Shown here piece after piece: positions 19,907 to 59,975 of a stretch of 64,000 nt of DNA (positions are counted from its first letter, which is position 1; each line of letters starts with the position of its first letter). The DNA is from Isurus oxyrinchus (taxonomy: Eukaryota), in contig JANJGN010000121.1 of NCBI GenBank assembly GCA_026770705.1, forward strand, positions 248,001 to 312,000. The letters are read 5' to 3'. The position numbers were made by a program, and so were the translations under genes. The notes beneath the pieces were generated by a model. It did no database searches, had not been told where the DNA came from, and was given only the letters and a program-made list of their open reading frames with translations.

Positions 19907-22900
19907 CTACAGAGAAATGGAAACAGAAGACATCCTCACATCAATTACTGGCACTGATAGGGTTAAATTATTGTGCAGCCTGGTTAGTGTCAGTCGTGTC
20001 TCAGTTGGTTTAACTCTCTCTCTCATATCATATAAAAGAAACCACCTATGGCAGGGCAGCACTCCTTCAGTACTGACCCCCGACAGCGCAGCACTCCCTC
20101 AGTACTGACCCTCTGTCAGTCTCGGACTCCCTCAGTACTGACCCCCGACAGCGCAGCACTCCCTCAGTACTGACCCTCTGTCAGTCTCGGACTCCCTCAG
20201 TACTGACCCCTGACAGCGCAGCACTCCCTCAGGACTGACCCTCTGTCAGTCTCGCACTCCCTCGGTAATGGCTCTGGTGAGTGCCGGCTTGGATTCTGCA
20301 CTCAGGTGCCTGGTGTGAGGCTCAATAACATGCACCTTGTAATCAGAGAGAGGATGAGAGGGAAGAGAAAGAGAGAAAGGGATAGAGATAGGGTGTTATT
20401 AATCTATTAACGTATGTAATGTAATTGGAAATTGTCTTTTTAAACAGGGGTTTAGTCTGTGGGTGTGTCTGTGAGTGTTTTAATTGGATTAAAGCCAGCC
20501 AGTCTGGGTACTTTGATGTCAAGTAGTTTTGAGATGTAAACAAAGAGGTAAAGGGGTAATTTGCATCTTTAAACAGAGCACTCAATGTCTGGGAGTGAAA
20601 TCTTAAACGAAGCAATGTTTATATTACTAATAAAATTGATACGATGAAGGGTGGAGTTCAAAGGTCCTGATGATACAATGAGAATTTACATTCAAAGAGA
20701 AGCATTGGGTATAACTTGAGCAGTTTTTTGTGTGCAGAGCAGAGGCTTGTAACATCAAAGCAGCTGTAAGCCTACACCTGTCTGCAAAGGAACCAAAGTG
20801 AAAGGAACCTCATTTGGAATTTGTGAGGTGAAAATGCTTTGCTGGAATCTGCTTAAAGTCTATGTGTTGTCTTAGAGGAGATTAGTTTGGGAATTTGTTA
20901 AAGTTATGATAATACTAGTTTGTAGCCATGTGCATATGTTTAACTTGTGTTAATTAATAAATGTCTCATGTAGATTGATATAAAACCATCTCGAGAACTG
21001 GTGGTCTTATTCCTGAATTTAGAGCTGCATCTCAAACATTCCACTGGGAAATATAGGTTATGACAGTTGTTTAAAGTTTCCCTCTGGGATTTGAAACAAC
21101 AGCCTTTAACAGTTGCTGTGTCATAACAGAGAGACAGCATGATACTGAACCATTGCTGACTCCACAGATACAAATCAGTGGGTGACTGGGCTGGGAATCT
21201 GGGACATGTGTTGTCTACACACTGAGATTGAAGCTTTGGAGTGAGTGTAAACAGCTCCTGTACCTGGTGCTTCACAGAGAGTGGACTGGGAATCAATGCA
21301 ATGTCACTGGTCCCTGAAACTCTCTCCGCCATTGCTGTCTTTCTCCTGCAATAACACAATATCACACTGTGGTTATCATATAGCAGAGAGTCAGTGCAGC
21401 ACAGACACAGAGCTCACTGTAACCTTACACCAATGACTGGACTGTCTCTTTAAATCACTTCTGCACAAAGCACAGAATCAAGAAGCTTGACACCATCCAG
21501 GACAAAGCAGCCCGATTGATCTACACCCCATCCACCACATTAAACATTCACTCCCTCCACAACGAACACACAGTGGCAGCAGTGTGTGTACCATCTACAA
21601 GATGCACTGCAGCAACTCAGCAAGGCTCCTTCGTCAGCACCTTCCAAACCCACGACCTCTACCATCTAGAAGGACAAGGGCAGCAGACACATGGGAACGC
21701 CACCACCTGGAAGTTCCCCTCCAAGTCACTCACCATCCTGACTTGGAAATATATCATCGTTCCTTCACTGTCACTGGGTCAAAATCCTGGAACTCCCTCT
21801 CTAACAGCACTGTGGGTGTACCTACACCACATGGACTGCAGCGGGTCAAGAAGGCAGCTCACTACCTCCTTCTCAAGGGGCAATTAGAGATGGGCAATTT
21901 AATAACGGCCTCACCAGTGACAGTCACATTCGATGAAAGAATTTAAAATCTCACAGCTCAGGAGGAAGCCACTCAGCCCATCGTGCCTGTGCTGGCCCTT
22001 TGTAAAAACTGTCCAAATAGTCCTAAGCAAATGTTTATATTAAAATCAAGTTAAATCTTCAGACTTACTTTCTCACACAGATGAAGATGAAGATTCCAGC
22101 CAGGAAAACACTCAACATGATCCCAGCCGTGAACAATCCTACTGTCCATTTACTGGAGTCTCTACCTGTAAAAACAGTCATTAATTACTGCACTACAGGT
22201 TTACAATGATGCTCCGATGTATCTCGAGAAGCGATACACTCACTCAGTGTTTAAATACTCATTCTCGGGCAATGCTGACATTTATTGTCCATCCCTAGTT
22301 TCCCCTTGAGAAGGTGGTGGGGGGTCTTCCTCCTGAACCACTGGTTTGTCCCAAACTGGGAGACCAGTTCAGAGGGCAGGTAAGAGTTAACCATGTTGGT
22401 GTTTGAGACTGGAGTCACATATACACCCAGACCTGTTAAAATGGACAGGTTTCCCTCCCTTAAGATCATTAGTGACCCATATTATATATGTAATTTATAT
22501 ATATATGTATCAACTACCCTCCCTAAAATAATCAATTATCACCTCAATTTCATGCTGTTGTTTGTGGGATCTTGCTGTGCACAAATCAGCTGTTGCGTTT
22601 CTTACATGATGACAGTGAGCTCACTTTGAAACTGCTTCACTGGTTATCGAGCGTTTTGGGAATTCCTAAGTATTTTATCAACGCAAGTCTTATATTTTGA
22701 TTTAATCCATGTAACATTTATATATAATATTTATCAATGTGATCCCTATAGCATAAATTTATAATATTTATCAATATAATCTATGTAACATTTATATATA
22801 ATTTTTATCCATTTAATTTCTGTAATATTTATATATAATGTTTCTCGATCTAATCCATGTAACATTTATATATAACATTTATCAATGTAATATATGTAAC

Positions 22901-25900
22901 ATTTATATCTAATATTTATTCATTTAATCTGTGTAACATTTGTATTTAATTTTTCTCAATGTAATCTATGTAAAATTTATATATAATATTTATCCATTTA
23001 ATCTATGTAACATTTATATATAATATTTATCAATTTAATCTATGTAACATTTATATATAATATTTATCAATGTAATCTATGTAACATTTATATATAATAT
23101 TTATCCATTTAATCTATGTAACATTTATATATAATATTTATCCATTTAATCTATGTAACATTTATATATAATATTTATCCATTTAATCTATGTAACATTT
23201 ATATATAATGTTTCTCAATGCAATCGATGTAACATTTATATATATTTATCAATATAATCCATGTAACATTTATATATAATATTTATCAATATAATCCATG
23301 TAACATTTATATATAATATTTATCAATGTAATCTATGTAACATTTATATATAATTTTTCTTGATGTAATCTATGTAACATTTATATATAATATTTATCAA
23401 TGTAATCTATGTAACATTTATATATAATGTTTCTCGATGTAATCTATGTAATGTTTATATATAATATTTAGTCGTTTGGGGGGAGAACCTGAGTATTGCT
23501 GAGAAAGGACATTTTGTCAAAGCTTTCTGTCTTGCACCCAATGAAGCAGCTTATCTGGGGGAGAGGGTTCCAGATTTCCACTCCCCTTTGTGTGAAGAAG
23601 TGCTTCCTGACATCACCCCCTGAACGGCCTGGCTCCAATTTGACCAAGTGTTGCCATTGTCACATGAGGTCAGGAGATTCAAAGCTTGGTCAAATGGGTA
23701 AGTTGTACACAGCATCTTAGAGGAGGTAGAGAGAGAGGTGGAGAGGTTGAGGGAGGGAATTCTCGAGTTTAGGGATCAAACCAGCTGAGTGGAGATCGAT
23801 CCTGAGCGAGTCTCTCACCTTTGACCCACAGATACATCTTGAACATGGCTTCCCCATGTGGGTTTTGAACCGAGCAGGATGCCATCACTCCCCCCTCATC
23901 CTGGGGTCTCATCAGGGTGAGGGAACCAGTCACCAGATGCCCATCTCTGACCTGCCATGACACAAAACCTCCGTGTGTTTGGTTACCACTGATGTTGGCA
24001 CTGGGCAGGTGCCAGGTGAGGTCTCCGGGTGGGTTGGAGTTGGCCACACAGATGCAGGTGACCCCCTCTGATCTCCGAGTGCACTCCGACTGCTGGGAAA
24101 TCTCCGGCTTATCTGAGGAGGGAAGGACAACAATGAGACAACGTCATAGCAAAGTTAGAGCGTAAGATAGAATCTTCACACTGAAACACTCATTCCTGCC
24201 TTTGTTACCTCCGCACTCAACTATCCCAACACTCTCCTGCCCGACCTCCCATCTTCCACTCTCCGTCAACATCAGCTCATCCCAAACTCTGCTGTCCCCA
24301 TGTCCTAACTCACACCGAGTCCCGTTCACACATCACTCCCTGTTGGTCACTGAGCTACACTGGCTCCCGGTCCGACAATGCCACAATTTTAAAATTTACA
24401 TCGTTTCAAATCCCTCCTTACCCCCTCCCTATCTCTGTTACCTCCTCCAGCCCCTACAACCCTCCCTATCTCTGTTACCTCCTCCAGACCCTTCAACCCT
24501 CCCTATCTCTGTAACCTCCTCCAGCCCCTTCAACCCTCCCTATCTCTGTAACCTCCTCCAGCCCCTACAACCCTCCCTATCTCTGTAACCTCCTCCAGCC
24601 CCTACAACCTTCCTTATCTCTGTAAACTCCTCCAGCCCCTACAACCGTCCCTATCTCTGTAACCTCCTCCAGCCTCTACAACCCTCCGAGATCTCTGTGC
24701 ACCTCCAATTCCAGCCTCTTGACCTTCCCCCGATTCCTATCGCTCCACCATTGGCAGCCGTGCCTTCAGGTGCCTGGATCCTAACTTCTGGAATTCCCTC
24801 CCTCATTTCTCACCTCCTTCGGACAAAATCTGACCACCATCAAAAGCATCTTCCCTTCACCCCCACCCCGTTGGCATTCCAGGGATCATTCCCTCCAGGA
24901 CACCCTGGTCCACTCCTCCATCACCCCTAGCACCTCAACCCTCTCCGATGACATCTTCCCATGCATTTGCAGAAGGTGTAACACCTGCCCCTTTACTTCC
25001 TCCCCCCTCACTGTCCAATGAGCCAAACACTCCTTCCAGGTGAAGCAGCGCTTCATGCAGACTTCCTTCAATTTAATCTACTGCATTCACTGCTCCCAGT
25101 GTGGTCTCCTCTACATTGGAGACACCAAACGCAGACTGGGTGACCACTTTTCAGAATACCTTCGGTCTGTCTGCAAGCATGACCCAGACCTCCCTGTCGC
25201 TTGCCATTTTAACACCCTACCCTGCTCTCATGCCCACATGTCCGTCCTTGGCTTGCTGCATTGTTCCAGTGAAGCCCAACGCAAACTGGAGGAACAGCAC
25301 CTCATCTTCCGACCAGGCACTTTACAGCCTTCCGGTCTGAATATTGAGTTCAACAATTTCTGGTCATGAACTCTCTCCTCGATCTTCACTGCTTTTTGAT
25401 CCCTTTTTTATGTATTCATTTTAATTGTTTTATTTGTTAACTGTTTTCCACTTATTTTTATTATTATTATTTGAAATTCATTTCCATTTTTATTGATTGT
25501 TTTATCCACAGATTTTAGTCTATTTTCGATCTTTATTCCCTCCACCGTCCCCTCCCCCTGCCACACCCCCACGAGGGCCATCTGTCTCTTTCCAGAGTGC
25601 TTACCCTGGTCCGCCCATTATCACACTCTGCTTAATGTCACCATTAGCACCTCCTTTATCCAGTACCACCACTGTTAACAACCCTTTGACCTTGTGTTTA
25701 TGACATCTTCCACAATCTCTCCATTGCCTCCACCTATCGCTGGTTTTCTATCCAGCTCCACCTGTCCCATCGCCCCTCCTTAGACAGGATATATTTCACC
25801 ACATGTCTACTTCCCTTTAGCTCTGAAGAGGAGTCATACGGACTCGAAACGCTAACCCTGTCTTTCTCTCCACAGATGCTGCCAGATGGTCAGAATCAGC

Positions 25901-49973: not shown

Positions 49974-50090
49974 TTATAAATTCCCATACACAGAATCCTT
50001 GGCAAATTCACAGTTTGCGTAAAGATCATCATCTGTATCAGGATTGACTCCGCGGTTAGATTTCATTTCCAGATCCTTCTCATCTTTCTT
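49974..50090 (-). CDS. Gene D terminal exon (KKDEKDLEMKSNRGVNPDTDDDLYANCEFAKDSVYGNL*)
   Basis: tttctattacag acceptor, phase 0; two Tyr motifs in acidic context; ends in ITIM-consensus SVYGNL. Confidence 0.75.
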   Translation of the reverse strand, partial: KKDEKDLEMKSNRGVNPDTDDDLYANCEFAKDSVYGNL

Positions 50091-53000
50091 CTGTAATAGA
50101 AACAGAAATGATCAGAGTGACAATCAGAGTGATCAGTGTTTAGTATTATTGATCCAAATCGAAAATTCCACCCACAATAGATACATTAATTATTGATACT
50201 GAACAGGGTTTGATTATTGATTCTGAACGGGGTTTGATTATTGATTCTGAACGCGGTTTGATTATTGATTCTGAACGCGGTTTGATTATTGATTCTGAAT
50301 GGGGTTTGATTATTGATACTGAACCGGGTTTGTTTATTGATAATGAACGGGGTGTGATTATTGATTCTGAACGGTGTTTGATTATTGATTCTGAACAGGG
50401 TTTGATTATTGATTCTGAACGGGGTTTGATTATTGATTCTGAACAGGGTTTGATTATTGATTTTGAACGGGATTTGATTATTGATTCTGATCGGGGTTTG
50501 ATTATTGATTCTGAAGGGGGTTTGATTATTGATACTGAACGGGGTTTGATTATTGATTCTGAACAGGGTTTGATTATTGATACTGAAAGGGGTTTGATTA
50601 TTGATTCTGAACGGGGTTTGATTATTGATACTGAATGGGGTTTGATTATTGATTCTGAACAGGGTTTGATTATTGATTCTGAATGGGGTTTGATTATTGA
50701 TTCTGAATGGCATTTGATTATTGATACTGAATGGGGTGTGAATACTGATTCTGAACGGGGTTTGATTATTGATACTGAATGGGGTTTGATTATTGATATT
50801 GAATGGGTTTTGATTATTGATTCTGAATGGGGTTTGATTATTGATTCTGAACGGGGTTTGATTATTGATTCTGAACGGGGTTTGATTATTGATTCTGAAC
50901 GGGGTTTGATTATTGATACTGAACGGGGTTTGATTATTGATACTGAATGGGGTTTGATTATTGATACTGAATGGGGTTTGATTATTGATTCTGAACGGGG
51001 TTTGATTATTGATTCTGAACGGTGTTGGGTGTGAGTTTGGTTGGGTTTGGGAGTGACTGTATAAAACATTGCAGATACAGGACTGGAGCAGCCATATCAA
51101 TAACCAGGCTACTGGAGCAGCTGAGAGGCTGTGGATCCTGTGGTGTGTGACTCACCTGATTCCTCAAAGCCCAACCACGCTCACAGTTTTCATAAACAGG
51201 ACTTCGATGTTCATCAACACGATGGTTCGATTTGATTCCTGCTTTCCCCTCGCCTCTCTTCTGTAATAGAGATGGAAATGGACAGAGTGACAATCAACAT
51301 GATGTGTATTCGGTGTTGGGTTTGATTATTGGGGAGAGAGTTCCAGATTTCCACTCCCCTTTGTGTGAAGAAGTGCTTCCTGACATCACCCCTGAATGGC
51401 CTGGCTCCAATCTGAAGTTCCAGCCCCCTTGTTCTGGACTCCACCCGACCTCCACCACCCACCCCCACCCGAGGGAATAGCTTCTCTCTATCGACCCTAT
51501 CGAGTGTTTAATCAGTTTGAACCCCTCAGTTAGATCCCTCCTTAATCTTCTAGACCCGAGGGAATATAATCGTAGACTGTGTGTAACCTGTCTGCACAAT
51601 TTAACCAGAAAAATGTTCTGTACAACAGACTTGAGCCTCACACCCAGATCTCAATAATCAGTAGAAATCTTTCAAAGGCATCAATCATTGGAATCTGTCT
51701 TCATAAAGTCACAACATCAACAAAGGACGGTGTTGGTGGTGGAAGTGAATTCCAATCGTTCTGTTACTTACCCAGGACCTGTCCGACTGTTCGCCTGGGG
51801 AGGAACTGCCCACACGCTCTGCTTCGGCTGAATGACCTCTTCCTGTGCTGATCCCTCTGTGTATTTAATGAGAAAGGGTTGATGTGTCACTGTGAGTCAA
51901 ATCAGGAATTGGGGAACAATTGTGAAAACACTTTCATTGAAACGTTGGGCCTTAGTGTTGTGTTGTAAACAAACTGTTAACCCTTTGTGTCCTGACTCTG
52001 TGACGTGATTCCTGTGTAAAGCTGAGCAGTCGTTGAGCGAGTTTCAATTCACTGCTCACTCCAGGTGTTGAGGTGGATCTTCTGAAGGAGCAGATGTTGC
52101 TCAGCACTCCTTAAAAATGTGAGATACTGAACAACGTGTAAGAGGATGAGAGAGAGAATGAGAAGGAGAGCATTAGTGGAGATAGGAGAGAGAGTGAATG
52201 AGAGAGAGAATTAGAAGGAGAGCATTAGTGGAGATTGGAGAGAGAGGGAATGAGAGAGATAATGAGAAGGAGAGCATTAGTGGAGATAAGAGAGAGAGTG
52301 AATGAGAGAGAGAATGAGAAGGCGTGCATTAGTGGCGATAAGAGAGAGTGAATGAATCATGGAAAATGGAAAGAGATTGCATTCACTAACAAAAGAAAGG
52401 TTTTTATTTGTATAGCAGCATTCACAAACTCAGGAGGTCAGAAGCTATTTTATGGTCCGGGTCAACACTGCCAGTTACAGGACTGAGTTGTGAAACAGTG
52501 AGTGTTGGATGAGATGTTAAACACTAGGTGAACATCAAAACTCTTCAGGGACTGCGAAGGGTTTTGGATTGTAAAAGGTGCTATAGAAATGCAAGTTCTT
52601 TCTATAAGGAGAGAAGTTTGAAGAAAACATTTTCAAAAACAACCAATTAAACCTTCACACTTACTTTCTCACACACTTGAAAATGAAGAATCCACTCAGT
52701 CCAACACTCAAACAGATTCCAGCTCCAAGCAATCCTGCTTTCCATTCATTGGAATCTCGCCCTGTAAAATCAGCCAATGAATGACTCCGGTACAGTTTGA
52801 GAATGGTTCCCTATGTACATGTAGTAATTCTGAACTTGTGAAGTGATATTGTCTATGCATGAAAGGTCTATACAAATAACATTTATCTATGTAATATTTA
52901 TTGATAATATCCATGTACATGCAGGTTTCTATAAGGAGGATTCACATATAACAGAGGTGCCAAGCTGCTGAGGTGACACACAGGACTACATACACACCAA

Positions 53001-56000
53001 ACAGCGGAAACAACATGCTATAGACAGAGCAAAGCGATCCCACAACCAACGGGTCAGATCTAAGCTCTGCAGTCCTGCCACATCCAGTCATGAATGGTGA
53101 TGGACAATAAAGATCTAACAGGAGGAGGATGTTCCACAAATATCCCCATCCTTAATGATGGGGGAGCTCAGCACATCAGTGCAAACAACAAGGCTGAAGC
53201 ATTGGCAACCATGTTCAGCCAGAAGTGCTGAGTGGATGATCCATCTCGGCCTCTTCCAGAGGGTCCCAGCATCACAGATGTCAGCTTTCAGACAATTCGA
53301 TTGACTCCACGTGACATCAGGAATCAGCTGATGATACTGGATACAGCAAAGGCTATTGGCCCTGGCAACAACCCAGCAACAGGAAATAATGTGGCTACAA
53401 GAGCGGGTAAGAGGCTGGGAACTCTGCAGTGAGTAATTCAACTCCTGACCCCCCAAAGCCTGTCCACCATCGGACAAGGCACAAGTCAGGAGTGTGATGG
53501 AATAATCTCCACTTGGCTGGATGAGTGCAGCTCCAACAACACTCAAGAAGCTCGACACCATCCAGGAGCAGCTTGTTTGATCGACAGCCCAGCCACCAGC
53601 ATAAACATTCATACCCTCCACCACTGGCACACAATGGCAGCAATGTGCACCATGTACAAGATGCGCTGCAGCAACTCACCAAGGCTCCTTCGACAGCACC
53701 TTCCAAACCCTTAACCTCATCCACCAAGACAGTTCCAAGTCAGTGAGGTGTGTGACTTGGAGGCGAACTTGAGGTGGTGGTCTGCCCTGGGACTTGGAAC
53801 TATATCGGCCGTTCCTTCACCGTCTCTGGGTCAAAATCCTGGAACTCCCTCCCTAACAGCACTGTGGGTGTACCTACACCACATGGACTGCAGTGGTTGA
53901 AGAAGGCAGCTCACCACCACCTTCTCAAGGGGCAGTTACAGATGGGCAATAATTTCTGGCCTTGTCAACAATACTCACATCCCATGAGCTAATAATAAGA
54001 GAACGTTCAATTCTGTGTAACTCACGTTCCACAGTGATGTTTATGAATCCCTCCACTGCTCCATGTTCATTCTCTGCCACACACTGATAGTCTCCAGTGT
54101 CCCTGGATGTAACGTGAGGAATCACCAACCACAGCTCATTGTTGGAACTTGTTCTGTTCATTGGGACATTAAGATGTCGCCACATCAGGTTAGAAGCTGG
54201 GAAGCTCTCGACAGAGCAGATTATCACTGCAGAATTCCCCTCAATTATAATGATCGATGAAGCGTTAATCATATCAAGAAAATTAATTGAGAGATTCTGT
54301 GGTGCATCTATAAACAAATAAACATCAATTAAGTTACACTGACTGTGAAGCACTTTGAAAGACACTTAGAATGTGAAAGGTATGATCTCAATGTAGGTTC
54401 ATTTTCACAAAGCCCGTAATCCAGGCAGAGACTTCAGTTCAGTACTGAGGGAGTGCTGCACTGTCAGAGAGTCAGTACTGAGGGAGTGCTGCACTGTCAG
54501 AGAGTCAGTACTGAGGGAGCACTGCACCGTCAGAGGTTCAGTGCTGAGGGAGTGCGGCACTGTCAGAGGGTCATTACTGAGGGAGTGCTGTACTGTTGGT
54601 GGGTAAGTACTGAGGGAGTGCTGCACTGTCAGAGAGTCAGTACTGTGGGAGTGCTGTACTGTCAGAGGTTCAGTACATAGGGACAGCTGCACTGTCTGAT
54701 GGTCAGTCCAGAGGGGGTGCTGCACTGTTGGAGGGTCAGAACTCGGGGGGTGCTGCAGTGTGGGAGGGCCAGTACTGAGGGAGCACTGCACTGTTGAAGA
54801 GTCAGTACTGAGGGAGTGCTGCACTATCGAAGGTTCAGAACTGAGGGAGTGCTGCAGTGTTGGAGATTCAGTATTTAGGGACTGCTGCAGTGTCAGAGGC
54901 GAATTTGTATCAGTTAAAGACTATTGATTTGTTGCTAAACACAATGCAGTTGTGGGATCTTGCAGTGTACTATGTAGAGCTTTCTAGCTAATGTAGATGG
55001 AAGGGTGTCCGTTCTTACCTTGCACAGTTAGTACGAGGGTCCGCTCCGATGAAACAGATGGATATCTCACTCTGCAGCTGAGAGTGTGTCCGTGGTGTTT
55101 GAGTGATGGGATCAGGGTCAGAACAGAAGTATAGGTCAGAGTGACACCATGCTGAGTTACAGTGTTTGAGACTGATCCAGGTACGTCAGTGGGAGTGTCC
55201 CAGGTTAAGACAGGTGCTGCTGTTCCATTGCACGTTGTGTTGAAGGTGCAGCTTACATCCACACGCTTTCCTGCAATAATTTCAGCAGGGAATATCATGG
55301 GTTTATCTGTGAAATCTAACAGACAGAGAATGGATCCTTTTAGAGAAATATAACGTGAAGCATCAGTTCAAATAGAAACCACAGTCCCACAAGAGAAAGC
55401 ACTTTTACAAGGATGATATCAGAACTGAGAGGTTACAATGATCAGGAGAGCATTTCCTGCTTTGACACTTTGGTGTTTCTGTCTCTCAGCTTAACACACG
55501 TTCACTCCGAGACACTTGAACTGATAATAGTGGGTGAGGGTGGAGGAGCAGACCAGAGTTTGGAGTGCACTACCCCATCATTCACTCAGCGATCTGGGCC
55601 ATTTATTACTTTGCAATTTGTGGGAGCTTGCTGTGCGCAAATTGGCTGCTGTGTTTCTCACATTACAACAGTAACTACAATTCAGGAATCAGCTCATTGG
55701 CTGTGAAGTGATTTGGTACGTTCTGAGGTGGTGAAAGGTGCTATAGAAATGTGAATCTTTCTTCTGTCGATATGTCAGGCTTCGAGACATTAGAGATTAG
55801 GATTAGAGAGATCGATGGGAGTGGATAACCTGATAACATTGATGGACACTGTCAATATATTTAATCATTGATATTAAAGTGAGTATTAGAGGTTGCTTTA
55901 GGACTGAACTGGAAGCTATCACCAGGATATCGAGAATCAGACAGTGTGTTATAATAAACTGTGTTTTGTGTTAATATGTAAACGTCATAGTTTGTGTTAT

Positions 56001-59000
56001 TTCCCATTGAGTGTTGAATGTGAAATGTTGAGTAATTATAACACAGCACTTACCAGAAACGTGAAGCTGGGTTACAGGGTAATAGTTATAGCTCGGAGCA
56101 TTGTCAAATTCTATTCTGAAAAAATAAGGTCCTGCATCTTCCCGTCTGATGTTGTTCATAATCAGAGAACAGTCGCCATCTTTCAGGTCTCCAGACAGCC
56201 GGGTCCGATGGTGGAACTGTGGTAACTCGTGACTGTGATCCTTGGAGTGAAAGGCTATAGACAATGTTCTCCGTTCCTCATTATTAAACCAGACTCCAAC
56301 TCGTGGTTGGTTTTCCAGACACGATGGATAACTGTAATGACATGGAATCTGTACACAGGAATCTTCCTGCGCTGTCACCTCTCGTGGAGTGTCACCTTTC
56401 CACTCTTGTGACAGTCCAACTGTGGAGAGAAATCTCAATATTTATCTCTGGATGTTTTGTGGATCCACTGAACCCGATATTTACAGATGAGACAGAATTT
56501 GGAGGATGGTTAATACTGAGGAGAATGGCAACAAATTATTTTGGCAGGATGAATAGAAAAACAGAATATTATTTAAATGGAGACAGGATGCAGAATGCAG
56601 TACAGAGGGATCTGGGTGTCCTTGTACATGAATCACAGAAAGTCAGCATTCAGGAACACCACGGAATGAGGAAGGCAAGTGGAATGTTGGCCTTTATTGC
56701 AAAGGGATGGAGTATAAAAGGAGGGAAGTCTTGCAACAGCTGCACAGGGCGTTAGTGAGATTGTAACAGGATCATTGTGTACAGGCAGTTCAGAGAAGCT
56801 TCACTGGGCTGATTCCTGGGATTAAAGGGTTTGTCCTGTGAGGAAATGTTGAGCAGGTTGGGCCTGTATCCATTGGAGTTTAGAAGAATGAGGGGTGACC
56901 TTATTGAAACATATCCGATTCCGAGGGGGCTTGACAGGGTGGATGCTGGGAGGATGTTTCCCCCTCGTGGGGGAATCTAGAACCAGGGAGCACAGTTTCG
57001 GAATGAGGGCTCCCCCATTTAAGACTGAGATGAGGAGGAATTTCCTCTCTCAGAGGGGCGCTAGCCTGTGGAATTCTCTTCCCCAGAGAGCAGTGGAGGC
57101 TGGGCCATTGAATAGACTCAAGGCTGAGTGAGGCAGGTTTTTGATCGACAAGGGAGTCAAGGGTTTGGGGGACAGGCAGGAAAATGGAGTTAAGGACACC
57201 ACCAGATCAGTGAGAGCAGGCTCGAGGGGCCGAATGGCCTGCTCCTGTCCCTATTTCTTATGTTCCTACATTCTTACCTTCTTAAAATATTAAAGCTGCA
57301 GAATAAACATGCAAGTGACTGACCCGCTCGACCCACCTTCCATCTGGGGGTCCCATGGGGAGGACCCTTCCTGAGCCAGATCCACCAGCCAACATGGTCT
57401 GGATCTGAGCACAGGAGACACGGGGGGGGGAGTGACTAACAGGCTCCTTGTGACAGGCCCCGTCTGTCCAATGGCTGGCTTTCAGCTGCCATGGCCAGAG
57501 TGGTCCTTGCTAAAACCGGCTCAGGACAGGCCAGGACCCCTGTGCAGACCCCCTCCAGCACTGCAGCCTCTGTACAAACCCCTCATGCGCTTGTGGAGAG
57601 ACACAAACAAGGCTGCACATTACCGAGGAGAATCCCCTCTACGGACTAAGGGGCTGACTCATCACCTTAAACTCAGCAAATGAGGAGGCTCTCGCTCGGT
57701 ATCAGGGCTTGGCATTCGCTCAATAAAAATAATCAAATTACATTTTGGTCAGAAATCTAAGGATGTTGTACATTCCCTCAAAAATAAGACTCAAGGCTGA
57801 AGGAACAACTGCCGATGTTGGAGTGATGGGATCGGGGGAAGGTCAAGAGGCTTGGATTGGAGGAGCGCAGAGACCTCATATGGTTGGAGTGACTGGAGGA
57901 GGTTACAGAGATAGGAAGGGTTGTACGGTCTGAAAAAGTTAAGAGAGATTGGGAGAGTGTAGGGTCTGGAGGAGATTACAGAGACAGTGAGGGTTGTAGT
58001 GATTGGAGGAGTTACAGAGATAGCGAGGGTTGTAGCGGCTGGAAAAGTTAAGAGAGATTGGGAGAGTGTAGGGTCTGGAGGAGTTTGCAGAGGTAGGGAG
58101 AGTTGTAGTGACTGGGGCAGGTTACAGGGGCAGGGAAAGTTGTCAGGACTGGAGCAGGCTACAGAGATAGGGAAGCTTTTAGGGGCAGGAGGAAGTTACA
58201 GAAATAGGGAGGGTTGTAGTGGCTGGAGGAGGTTGCAGAGATTGGTAGGTTTGTTTTGGCAGGATGAATTTACAGATATAGGGAAGTGGTAGAGGCTTGA
58301 AGAGGTTACAGAGAATGGGATGGTTGTAGGTACTGGAGGAGGACGAGGAGATTACAGGGATAATGAGGAAACAAAGATGAAAATTTGGACATTGAGACTT
58401 TGCTTGACCAGGAGCCAGTCTCGGTCATCGAGCAGAGCGGGTGATAAGGGAACGGGACTTGGTGTGAGTAAGGACGTGGTCAGCAGTTTTGGATGGCCTC
58501 AAGTTTATGGAGTGTGGAGCGTGTGTTGGAACAGTCGAGTCTGGAGGTAATGAAGGTGTGGATGAGGGTTTCAGCAGCAGATGAGCTGAGACAGGGTGAT
58601 GTCGTGCGATGTTACGGAGGTGGAAATAGACGGTGTTAGTGAGGGCGCAGATATGAGGCCGGAAGCTCATCTCAGGATCAAATGGGACAACAAAGCTGTG
58701 AACAGATTGGCTTCAATCTCAGAGAGCTGCCAGGGAGAGGAATGGAGTTGGTAGCGAGGGAACAGAGTTTGGAGCGGGGAATGAAGACAATGGCTTCAGT
58801 ATTTCCAATATTTAATTGGAGGGAATTTCTGCCCATCCAGTACTGGATGTCGGATAAGCAGCCTGATAATTTAGCAGCAGTGGAGGAGTCGAGAGAGGTG
58901 GTGGTGAGGTAGAGCTGGGGATCCTCAGTGGACAGGTGAAAACTAACACTGTTCAGATGATGCTGCAAAGCCATTGCAAGTGATTCTCTGGCTACGATGA

Positions 59001-59975
59001 GATGGATAAGAATGGAGCCAGGGGAGAGCAGTCCCACCCAGCTGGACGACAGTGGAGAGGTGTTGGAGGAGGATGGTGTGGTCGAGCGTGTCAAAGGCTG
59101 CAGACAGATCGAGAAGGACGAGGAGGGAAAGTTGACCTTTGTCACAGTCACACAGGATGCCATTTGTGACCTTGATAAGAGCTGTTTCAGCACAGTGGCT
59201 GGGGTGGGATCCTGATTGGAGGGATTCAAACATGGAGTTCCGGGAAAGATGGGAACGGATTCGGGAGATGGAAACACATTCAAGGACTTTGGAGAGGAAA
59301 GAGAAGCTGGAGATGGGACGGGGGTTTACACGGACAGTGTGAGGGGTGAAAGGTGTAGTGGGGAGGAGATACTTCACTCAGGGGGGAGGTGTCATCACCC
59401 CTCAGCTCGGTTTACATTACAGCTATGATGTGGATTCAATCACACACAATAAGCTCATGGATCTGGGAGCAGAAATAGACAAATCATTAAAAATAGTGAC
59501 GCTGGTTAACACGGCCAAAAAACAAGCAAATCAAACACTATTATTTCCCATTGAGTTTTGGATGTGAATTGTTGAGTAATTATAACACAGCACTTACCAG
59601 AAACCTGAAGCTGGGTTACAGGGGAAACGTTATGGCTCGGACGATTGCCAAATTTTATCGTGAAAAAATAAGGTCCTGCATCTTCCCGTCTGATGTTGTT
59701 TATAATCAGGGAACAGTCGCCATCTTTCAGGTCTCCAGACAGCCGGGTCCGATGGCGGAACCGTGGTAACTCGTGACTGTGTCCCTTGGAGTGAAAGGCT
59801 ATAGACCATTTAGACCATTTGTTCCGTATGTACCTTCTCATTTTCCAGATTCCGACATGTGGTTTCTTTATCAAATCTGATGGATAACTGTAATGACATG
59901 GAATCTGTACACACAAACCTTCCTGCGCTGTCACCTCTCGTGGAGTATCACCTTTCCACTCTTGTGACAATCCAA
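49974..59975 (-). CDS. Gene D (spliced, leader off-window): Siglec-like receptor, V(Arg-less)-V(Arg)-C-C2-TM-tail with three YxN motifs
   Basis: Exons 59598-59975, 56054-56419, 55019-55315, 54026-54307, 52665-52761, 51772-51856, 51156-51260, 49974-50090. With a 40-nt leader they sum to 589 codons in frame. Confidence 0.75.
50188..51022. repeat. 24-bp minisatellite (ggtttgattattgattctgaacgg), about 35 units
   Basis: Fills most of the last intron of gene D. Confidence 0.95.
51156..51260 (-). CDS. Gene D cytoplasmic exon (KRGEGKAGIKSNHRVDEHRSPVYENCERGWALRNQ)
   Basis: ctctattacag acceptor, CAG|gtgagt donor, phase 0-0; paralogous to the terminal exon. Confidence 0.7.
51772..51856 (-). CDS. Gene D candidate 85-nt cytoplasmic exon (GISTGRGHSAEAERVGSSSPGEQSDRSW)
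   Basis: Open reading, phase 2 in and phase 0 out, exactly bridging the TM and YEN exons; same sequence as the putative 5'UTR exon of genes A-C; acceptor is weak. Confidence 0.5.
52145..52355. repeat. About 52-bp purine-rich tandem repeat
   Basis: gagagagaatgagaaggagagcattagtggagata repeated 4 times. Confidence 0.85.
52665..52761 (-). CDS. Gene D transmembrane exon (RDSNEWKAGLLGAGICLSVGLSGFFIFKCVRK)
   Basis: 97 nt with the same boundaries as the A/B TM exon but diverged sequence. Confidence 0.85.
52935..53990 (+). mobile_element. Non-LTR retrotransposon fragments
   Basis: Degenerate ORF2-like peptide (KAEALATMFSQKC..DDPSRPLPEGPSIT..LDTAKAIGP) followed by the same 3' end as 21475-21950. Confidence 0.65.
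54026..54307 (-). CDS. Gene D single C2 exon (same family as the gene A array)
   Basis: 282 nt, phase 1-1. Confidence 0.88.
54435..54900. repeat. 33-bp minisatellite
   Basis: About 14 units; only about 2 units at the paralogous site 10000-10065. Confidence 0.9.
55019..55315 (-). CDS. Gene D Siglec domain-2 C-set exon
   Basis: 297 nt, open, canonical splice sites. Confidence 0.9.
56054..56419 (-). CDS. Gene D proximal V-set exon with the essential Arg (YFFRIE)
   Basis: 366 nt, close paralog of the gene A V exon; extra Cys in YPSCLE. Confidence 0.9.
59598..59975 (-). CDS. Gene D distal V-set exon lacking the essential Arg (YFFTIK)
   Basis: 378 nt, intact, close paralog of 31159-31536. Confidence 0.88.

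Follow-up and report, generated by a model that had tools for sequence, protein, structure and literature searches.

A Siglec-like gene of Isurus oxyrinchus with a predicted tail of three YxN motifs, likely lengthened by exon duplication

Gene D of a Siglec-like gene cluster in Isurus oxyrinchus is predicted to end in a tail with three tyrosine motifs, a number likely reached through an ancient exon duplication. The tail forms a genuine class of its own, conserved among sharks and greatly expanded in copy number. Judged from the sequences, docking of Grb2-family proteins is the likeliest role of its three YxN sites, with a probability of roughly 0.55. The cluster is very large and spans the window (the whole stretch analysed, 64,000 nucleotides of scaffold C121 in a genome of 4.98 Gb).

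Gene D and its neighbours

Gene D is located on the minus strand, and all of its exon ends are AG/GT (Table 1). It is predicted to be a Siglec-like type I receptor with an open frame: the joined exons gave 588 residues, composed of leader, two V, two C2, TM and a 102-residue tail. The order of a Siglec-type V-set domain followed by C2-set domains in a type I TM protein is the Siglec layout. The 18 best PDB matches of V2 were all Siglecs (Siglec-5, Siglec-8, CD33, Siglec-10, sialoadhesin and MAG among them), with scores of 55 bits for Siglec-5 and 47 bits each for sialoadhesin and MAG; the YFFR of V2 aligned with Siglec-5 and -8, and the essential Arg of the F strand is present. The CD33-related tail arrangement (a proximal ITIM with a distal ITIM-like motif, or a basic TM residue) was not found in gene D. 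We ruled out that the V exon at 59975 forms a gene of its own, since the gap between V1 and V2 contained no leader and the joined frame was open.

Table 1. Position of the gene D exons and related elements in the window
Feature	Position	Strand	Remark
Leader exon	about 1.3 kb past window end; locus L081 4338-4260		joined frame open
V1, V-set exon 1	59598..59975	-	Thr at Siglec essential-Arg position
V2, V-set exon 2, Siglec type	56054..56419	-	essential Arg present (YFFRIE)
C2a, C2-type Ig exon a	55019..55315	-	RNA joint 55019/54307
C2b, C2-type Ig exon b	54026..54307	-	RNA joint 54025/52760 (cut +1)
TM exon, 97 nt	52665..52761	-	uncharged helix; phase 2 end; RNA joints
Exon X, 85 nt, first tail exon	51772..51856	-	skippable; joints 52665/51856, 51772/51260
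Exon A, 105 nt, exon B duplicate	51156..51260	-	phase 0-0; YENC 51194-51183
24-bp minisatellite, 34.9 copies	50189..51026	.	in A-B intron; removed in RNA joint 51156/50090
Exon B, coding part, 117 nt to TAA	49974..50090	-	YANC 50021-50010; YGNL 49988-49977
Exon X copies	47798-47714, 45679-45595, 37354-37270, 15694-15610; locus L081 4834-4750

In the homologue search, lamniform sharks were the source of the closest named proteins to the proteins of the gene D cluster. RefSeq already lists proteins with the D tail, naming them generically as Siglec or MAG. We found no study of these tail classes in the literature on shark or cartilaginous-fish Siglecs and on Grb2/YxN, which was available in part and mostly outside subscription journals. 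The whale shark genome paper names Siglecs in passing in the excerpt available, and its supplementary file 9 may list them (PMC8455134); the other papers cited here by PMC number are likewise quoted from excerpts.

Several other features of the cluster were observed. In gene A (2450-9990), nearly identical C2 exons in tandem numbered at least seven, and the TM exon (1338-1245) was of the ITIM class. In gene B the second V exon (27963-27587) appears frameshifted near its start, with the open frame beginning out of register, and an AT-rich tandem array (22700-23470) occupied the intron before the TM exon. Gene C contained a TM exon with arginine and a short tail (41078-40944); in its V exon the match was limited to the final 31 bases (44413-44383), and this exon looks internally deleted. 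The length of the ectodomain also varied among class D copies.

Tail exons and their splicing

The peptides encoded by exon A and exon B are KRGEGKAGIKSNHRVDEHRSPVYENCERGWALRNQ and KKDEKDLEMKSNRGVNPDTDDDLYANCEFAKDSVYGNL, respectively. Between the two exons, 35 of the 45 intron bases before the acceptors and 59 of the 105 aligned exon bases were identical. None of 1000 dinucleotide shuffles of the intron, the exon or both reached the similarity score, and the peptide score was reached in 2 of 2000 shuffles. These tests agree with the sequence-only reading, which had regarded the last two exons as paralogous in acceptor and peptide; both are on the minus strand, with the outer ends that it had given (Table 1). 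Its proposal that the tail grew by duplication of a YxN exon is supported too, the similarity of intron, exon and peptide being beyond chance. Exon X as a third repeat was ruled out, since 550 and 1305 of 2000 shuffles scored equally high.

Duplicated end exons were also observed in ITIM-class tails (proteins P0025 and P0041; genome G000, C121:538638 and 541625, C150:645250 and 648239), and for this reason tail-exon duplication seems to recur in the family.

Read in the frame of gene D, the tail tyrosines are VYENC, LYANC and SVYGNL, with Asn at +2 in all three; as had been claimed, only SVYGNL fits the ITIM consensus. Three YxN occurred by chance in a shuffled tail with a frequency of 0.000175 (200,000 shuffles). 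Both PxxP and CxxC were absent from the tail, and a single juxtamembrane Cys was found. At window position 51203 in exon A, six residues before YENC, there is a His where 21 of 22 complete copies contain Tyr; this further Tyr is also present in several other sharks.

Because the TM exon (97 nt) ends in phase 2, the YxN frame requires exon X. Direct splicing from TM to A as the source of the YxN frame was ruled out, since the frame shifts and a stop is reached 8 nt before the last junction. The joints were searched in public contigs presumed to be RNA, in a first set of 4 runs from one sample and a second set of 4 runs from 3 studies and 2 organisms; these contigs pool near-identical copies of the D-type family. 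The first set contained the joints C2a-C2b, C2b-TM, A-B and TM-A. In the second set, the A-B joint was found in 3 of 4 runs, from 3 studies, and in the fourth run via loose ends; the X-A joint was found in 2 of 4 runs and in a third via a loose end, and the TM-X joint in 1 of 4. All joints of the gene D type had GT-AG ends, and exons A and B were both contained in one single contig of run X5. The base of the window copy at 49989 was in no contig of the 4 runs of the second set, which contained the family majority base throughout. Since the contigs show the inclusion joints, the long YxN tail is made by the D family.

The X-skipped form is also made by the D family, in one sample: the TM-A joint 52665/51260 was found in 2 of 4 runs of the second set, both from this sample, and neither run of the second organism contained it. 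The doubt raised beforehand, that the exons might be spliced in another frame or belong to another transcript, was thus half justified: the transcript check gave TM-X, X-A and A-B joints at the family level, joining the tail through exon X, but also the skip from TM to A in another frame.

In the X-skipped form exon A is read for 33 residues in another frame, tyrosine-free, and the stop is located 8 bases before the last junction; by the usual rule, such a transcript would escape decay. Genomic loss of X is an unlikely source of the skip joint, because X was present in 48 of 48 TM-bearing loci of the first locus set (some copies counted twice, and one being the window); loss in unsampled copies is a possible source. 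In the second locus set X was present in 22 of 23 TM-bearing loci, and the one deletion (locus L076) also takes out the acceptor of exon A. The final 19 residues of the X-skipped frame (52665-51156) are fairly hydrophobic (mean hydropathy 1.85), which could be incidental; this end is open in 20 of 22 copies. Among RefSeq isoforms, catshark P0056 has a short tyrosine-less tail directly after the TM, and white shark P0115 and P0116 represent forms with and without exon A.

Copies of exon X with 94-96% identity were observed just upstream of the signal-peptide exon of cluster genes (Table 1), and one was joined to the signal-peptide exon in RNA (45183/47714). A box, presumably Ets/PU.1-like, precedes three of the four X copies in the window, with a one-base variant at the fourth. 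From these upstream copies, exon X seems to have a dual use, serving most genes as a first, 5' untranslated exon and class D as the tail exon that sets the frame.

Conservation across sharks and copy number in the genome

The homologue set was composed of 114 shark and ray proteins and 3 more from a further search. A homologous TM was found in 80 homologues and an X-like segment in 23. The X-like models were chosen for their resemblance to exon X, with no regard to the motif; 18 of the 23 contained YxN, and in the other five X runs on into other sequence. Relatives of the D tail were distributed in five shark orders.

In a tree of 28 repeat units, built on a small number of columns (33), the nine A units formed one starred branch (95/88), and two ray rows were long branches. 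The A units were from white shark, basking shark, Mustelus, whale shark, zebra shark, Hemiscyllium, Chiloscyllium (two) and the window. These sharks represent three galeomorph orders. One old duplication of exons A and B is the simplest reading, because the nine A units from three orders are in one clade. The models of Heptranchias and Pristiophorus contained X and B only.

For the motif counts we used 17 genes, namely the window and 16 RefSeq models; these were picked by eye as complete tails, so the count favours the terminal motif. Left out were the isoform duplicates P0030, P0039, P0083 and P0116, the read-through P0058, the ray protein P0010 and P0119. At the terminal tyrosine Asn+2 was much better conserved than the ITIM consensus (17/17 versus 7/17), and a bulky +3 residue was present in 15/17. 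The proximal tyrosine of exon B had Asn+2 in 15/17 and Cys+3 in 16/17. At the exon A site the numbers were 7/8 and 8/8, respectively; the ninth A unit is without tyrosine, so that it is retained in 8 of 9 rows. For the internal sites pooled, Cys+3 was found in 24 of 25 and Asn+2 in 22 of 25. The two tyrosines of exon B were 11 residues apart in all 17 genes, with an acid at -3 in 13.

The sequence-only reading had suggested looking for this tail in other fish. Relatives were found in sharks, and one other match was taken as chance. The searches for the tail outside sharks, which are weak for short tails and leave rays, chimaeras and bony fish as possible carriers, gave 11 matches, all of them shark models; among 1.84 billion representatives only catshark P0119 and P0118, a Cys/Asp-rich repeat protein and the match taken as chance; and in one further search the query alone. 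In two white shark proteins (P0115 and P0116), the D-type TM and tail follow another leader and a V domain lacking the Siglec Arg, and in catshark P0119 an exon-B-like end follows another TM. These proteins may represent tail shuffling between families or fused models.

Counted as matches and not as genes, in an assembly where both haplotypes may sit, exact patterns were found 103 times for the D-type TM exon, 76 times for exon A and 136 times for exon B, and 105 times for the ITIM-class end and 212 times for the TM-arginine exon; the reversed-pattern controls gave 0 matches. The D tail stands beside the ITIM/EYAQI class and the TM-arginine class, as expected from the claim of a third class in the cluster. 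Because 103 D-type TM exons compare with about 105 ITIM ends and 212 TM-arginine exons, this third class is predicted to be a large part of the very large Siglec-like repertoire of this shark.

We fetched 40 exon-B loci, 20 among the best matches and 20 chosen without an exact A match nearby. Twenty-two contained TM-X-A-B, 17 were orphan B with no TM exon in line, and one was without X and the start of A. Among the 22 complete tails, 20 were open and 19 retained three YxN; 13 of these 19 had canonical splice sites throughout. The first AG of exon A was lost in 5 copies, where another AG follows in frame, and the donor was lost in 1. The orphan loci (L018, L024, L062, L064-L069, L071-L073, L075 and L077-L080) had a head-to-head arrangement, most of them some 4 kb upstream from the first exon of a gene in opposite orientation, and might be inversion remnants or have a regulatory role.

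Candidate partners of the tail and known receptors

Grb2 docking is favoured because Asn+2 is common to all three sites and the ITIM is not conserved. YxN is the ligand of the Grb2 SH2 domain, and three LAT sites allow branched Grb2-SOS1 aggregates, while two do not (PMC3291652). Under Grb2 docking, V2 with its retained Arg would bind sialylated ligands and cluster the receptor. Src- or Syk-family kinases would phosphorylate the tail tyrosines, two of which are preceded by an acidic stretch. Up to three Grb2 or Grap molecules could then bind directly and form a small NTAL/LAT-like scaffold, which may couple to SOS-Ras-ERK or Gab/PI3K. Splicing would set the number of sites at three with X, A and B, two without the symmetric exon A and zero with X skipped; exon A might be the valence step, since in LAT modelling the third site permits branching. 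The output would lean slightly to co-stimulation, because the SHP-binding ITIM is not conserved, with CD22-like damping through Grb2 nearly as likely. Precedents exist in both directions: in CD22, Grb2 damps calcium signals (PMC5302901), NTAL acts both ways (PMC3342071), a YxN site of catfish IpLITR 1.1b is proposed to stimulate (PMC4810170), and prolectin is a precedent for a Grb2-type site on a lectin receptor (PMC2709368).

Against Grb2 docking, Cys+3 and the 11-residue spacing of exon B are left unexplained. The Asn+2 may also be inherited from an ITIM, because it is present at the proximal tyrosine in 24 of 35 ITIM-class models from sharks, a count with isoforms; gene B of the window has it too (LLYANP). 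Class D is distinctive in its repeated YxN, Cys+3, fixed spacing and the absence of a distal EYAQI. The ITAM-like spacing (17/17) and Cys+3 (16/17) of exon B leave some probability to readings through Syk and STAT3; neither these two features nor the skip form had been part of the sequence-only reading.

It is unlikely that exon B is an ITAM-like unit, in which the two tyrosines would engage Syk/ZAP70 via its tandem SH2 domains and the receptor would activate directly, as is thought for ITAM-like CEACAMs. The spacing YxxC-x7-Yxx(L/I/V) in 17/17 genes and the acid at -3 in 13/17 resemble such a unit, and P0058 and P0119 have the same spacing, whereas in the ray protein P0010 it is 9. Measured against the consensus D/ExxYxxL/Ix6-8YxxL/I (PMC2832619), Leu or Ile was found at the first +3 in 0/17 and at the second in 6/17 (Val in 9). 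Pfam gave no ITAM match for 9 of 9 proteins, with weak matches filtered, and the ITAM-like reading leaves Asn+2 and exon A unexplained. A possible likeness between exon B and the ITAM of Ig-alpha was not borne out, as no match was found.

The chance is slimmer that this is an ordinary inhibitory tail, in which SHP-1/2 or SHIP would be recruited to the terminal SVYGNL, with an accessory role for the other tyrosines. The window and 22/22 complete genomic copies have SVYGNL in agreement with the consensus, and the D-type TM exon is paralogous to the ITIM-class TM exon (75% DNA identity). But among the 17 genes the fit is limited to 7, and in the other 10 the consensus is broken at -2 or +3 with Asn+2 retained; the distal EYAQI-type motif is missing, and an ITIM-class end exists separately in this genome (105 exact matches).

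A tail for uptake only, with YxxPhi at its end as the sorting signal, or the remnant of a decayed ITIM that multiplied along with the cluster, is very improbable. YxxPhi is present at the terminus of 15/17 genes, and copy number owes much to bulk duplication, as seen from the 17 orphans among the 40 exon-B loci; however, the motifs and their spacing have been retained across five shark orders with diverging flanks, and exon A kept its tyrosine in 8/9 rows.

Least probable of all is a docking of STAT3 on the internal YxNC as YxxC sites, with the terminal YxxV/L, as proposed for human TLT2: Cys+3 is kept at 24/25 internal sites, also where Asn is lost (YKSC, YESC), but the support comes from one paper, which describes YxxC as the STAT3 site of G-CSFR and two such tyrosines in TLT2 (PMC7516513), the Cys could instead serve lipidation or redox control, and the terminal Asn+2 is left unexplained.

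A far-reaching form of Grb2 docking can be advanced tentatively and is itself rather unlikely. About a hundred shark receptor genes would have their own LAT/NTAL-like trivalent Grb2 scaffold, on which sialic-acid binding would seed branched Grb2-SOS clusters without a separate adaptor; exon skipping would switch the valence among 3, 2 and 0, and the duplication from two to three sites would have crossed the branching threshold and been kept in three orders.

The usual view of paired receptor families is that of two arms, with ITIM tails on one side and adaptor-coupled charged helices on the other. If Grb2 docking is right, the D tail would be a third, adjustable signalling arm beside the predicted inhibitory and activating shark Siglecs. 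A multivalent Grb2 scaffold with splice-set valence would offer a natural series of 3, 2 and 0 sites for relating valence to receptor clustering, and would bear on the origin of the lone Grb2 sites in CD22 and Siglec-10.

Among known systems, the marsupial ITAM-bearing CEACAMs, prolectin, IpLITR 1.1b and TLT2 also have tail tyrosines outside the plain scheme of ITIM or adaptor coupling (YxN or YxxC), but their ectodomains or tails are unrelated and, in the excerpts, none has a triple YxN made by duplication. In the long and short forms of CEACAM1, the tyrosine motifs are likewise lost through a frame shift when a tail exon (exon 7) is skipped (PMC2490704). CEACAM1 belongs to another Ig family and its motifs are two ITIMs, whereas the skip form of gene D reads on into exon A. 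The shark ITIM-class receptors (gene B; "Siglec-13-like" and "MAG-like" in RefSeq) share the V/C2 exons, a paralogous TM and a proximal tyrosine that is often YAN, but end in LLYAx and EYAQI, with exons X, A and B absent.

The sequence-only reading had regarded several YxN sites as typical of LAT and NTAL rather than of CD33-type Siglecs. The several YxN of gene D stood, but Siglecs also carry YxN: in CD22 the motif YENV binds Grb2, and Siglec-10/G likewise have a site for Grb2 (PMC6286995), the Grb2 sites of both being described also in PMC3342095. CD22 and Siglec-10/Siglec-G resemble gene D in the Siglec ectodomain, the uncharged TM and the Grb2 site in the tail (PMC6286995, PMC3342095, PMC5302901). 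They have one Grb2 site beside ITIMs, in contrast to three YxN and no conserved ITIM in gene D. LAT and NTAL/LAB have several YxN per tail and a variable Grb2 valence (PMC3342071, PMC3291652), with few extracellular residues and CxxC (PMC3342071); tail searches, weak for short tails, found no sequence homology between them and gene D. The extracellular part of gene D comprises four Ig domains (about 460 residues), followed by the single juxtamembrane Cys. Because of the four Ig domains and the missing CxxC, gene D falls outside the definition of a transmembrane adaptor; its tail would work like an adaptor tail if Grb2 docking is right, while the protein itself is not a transmembrane adaptor.
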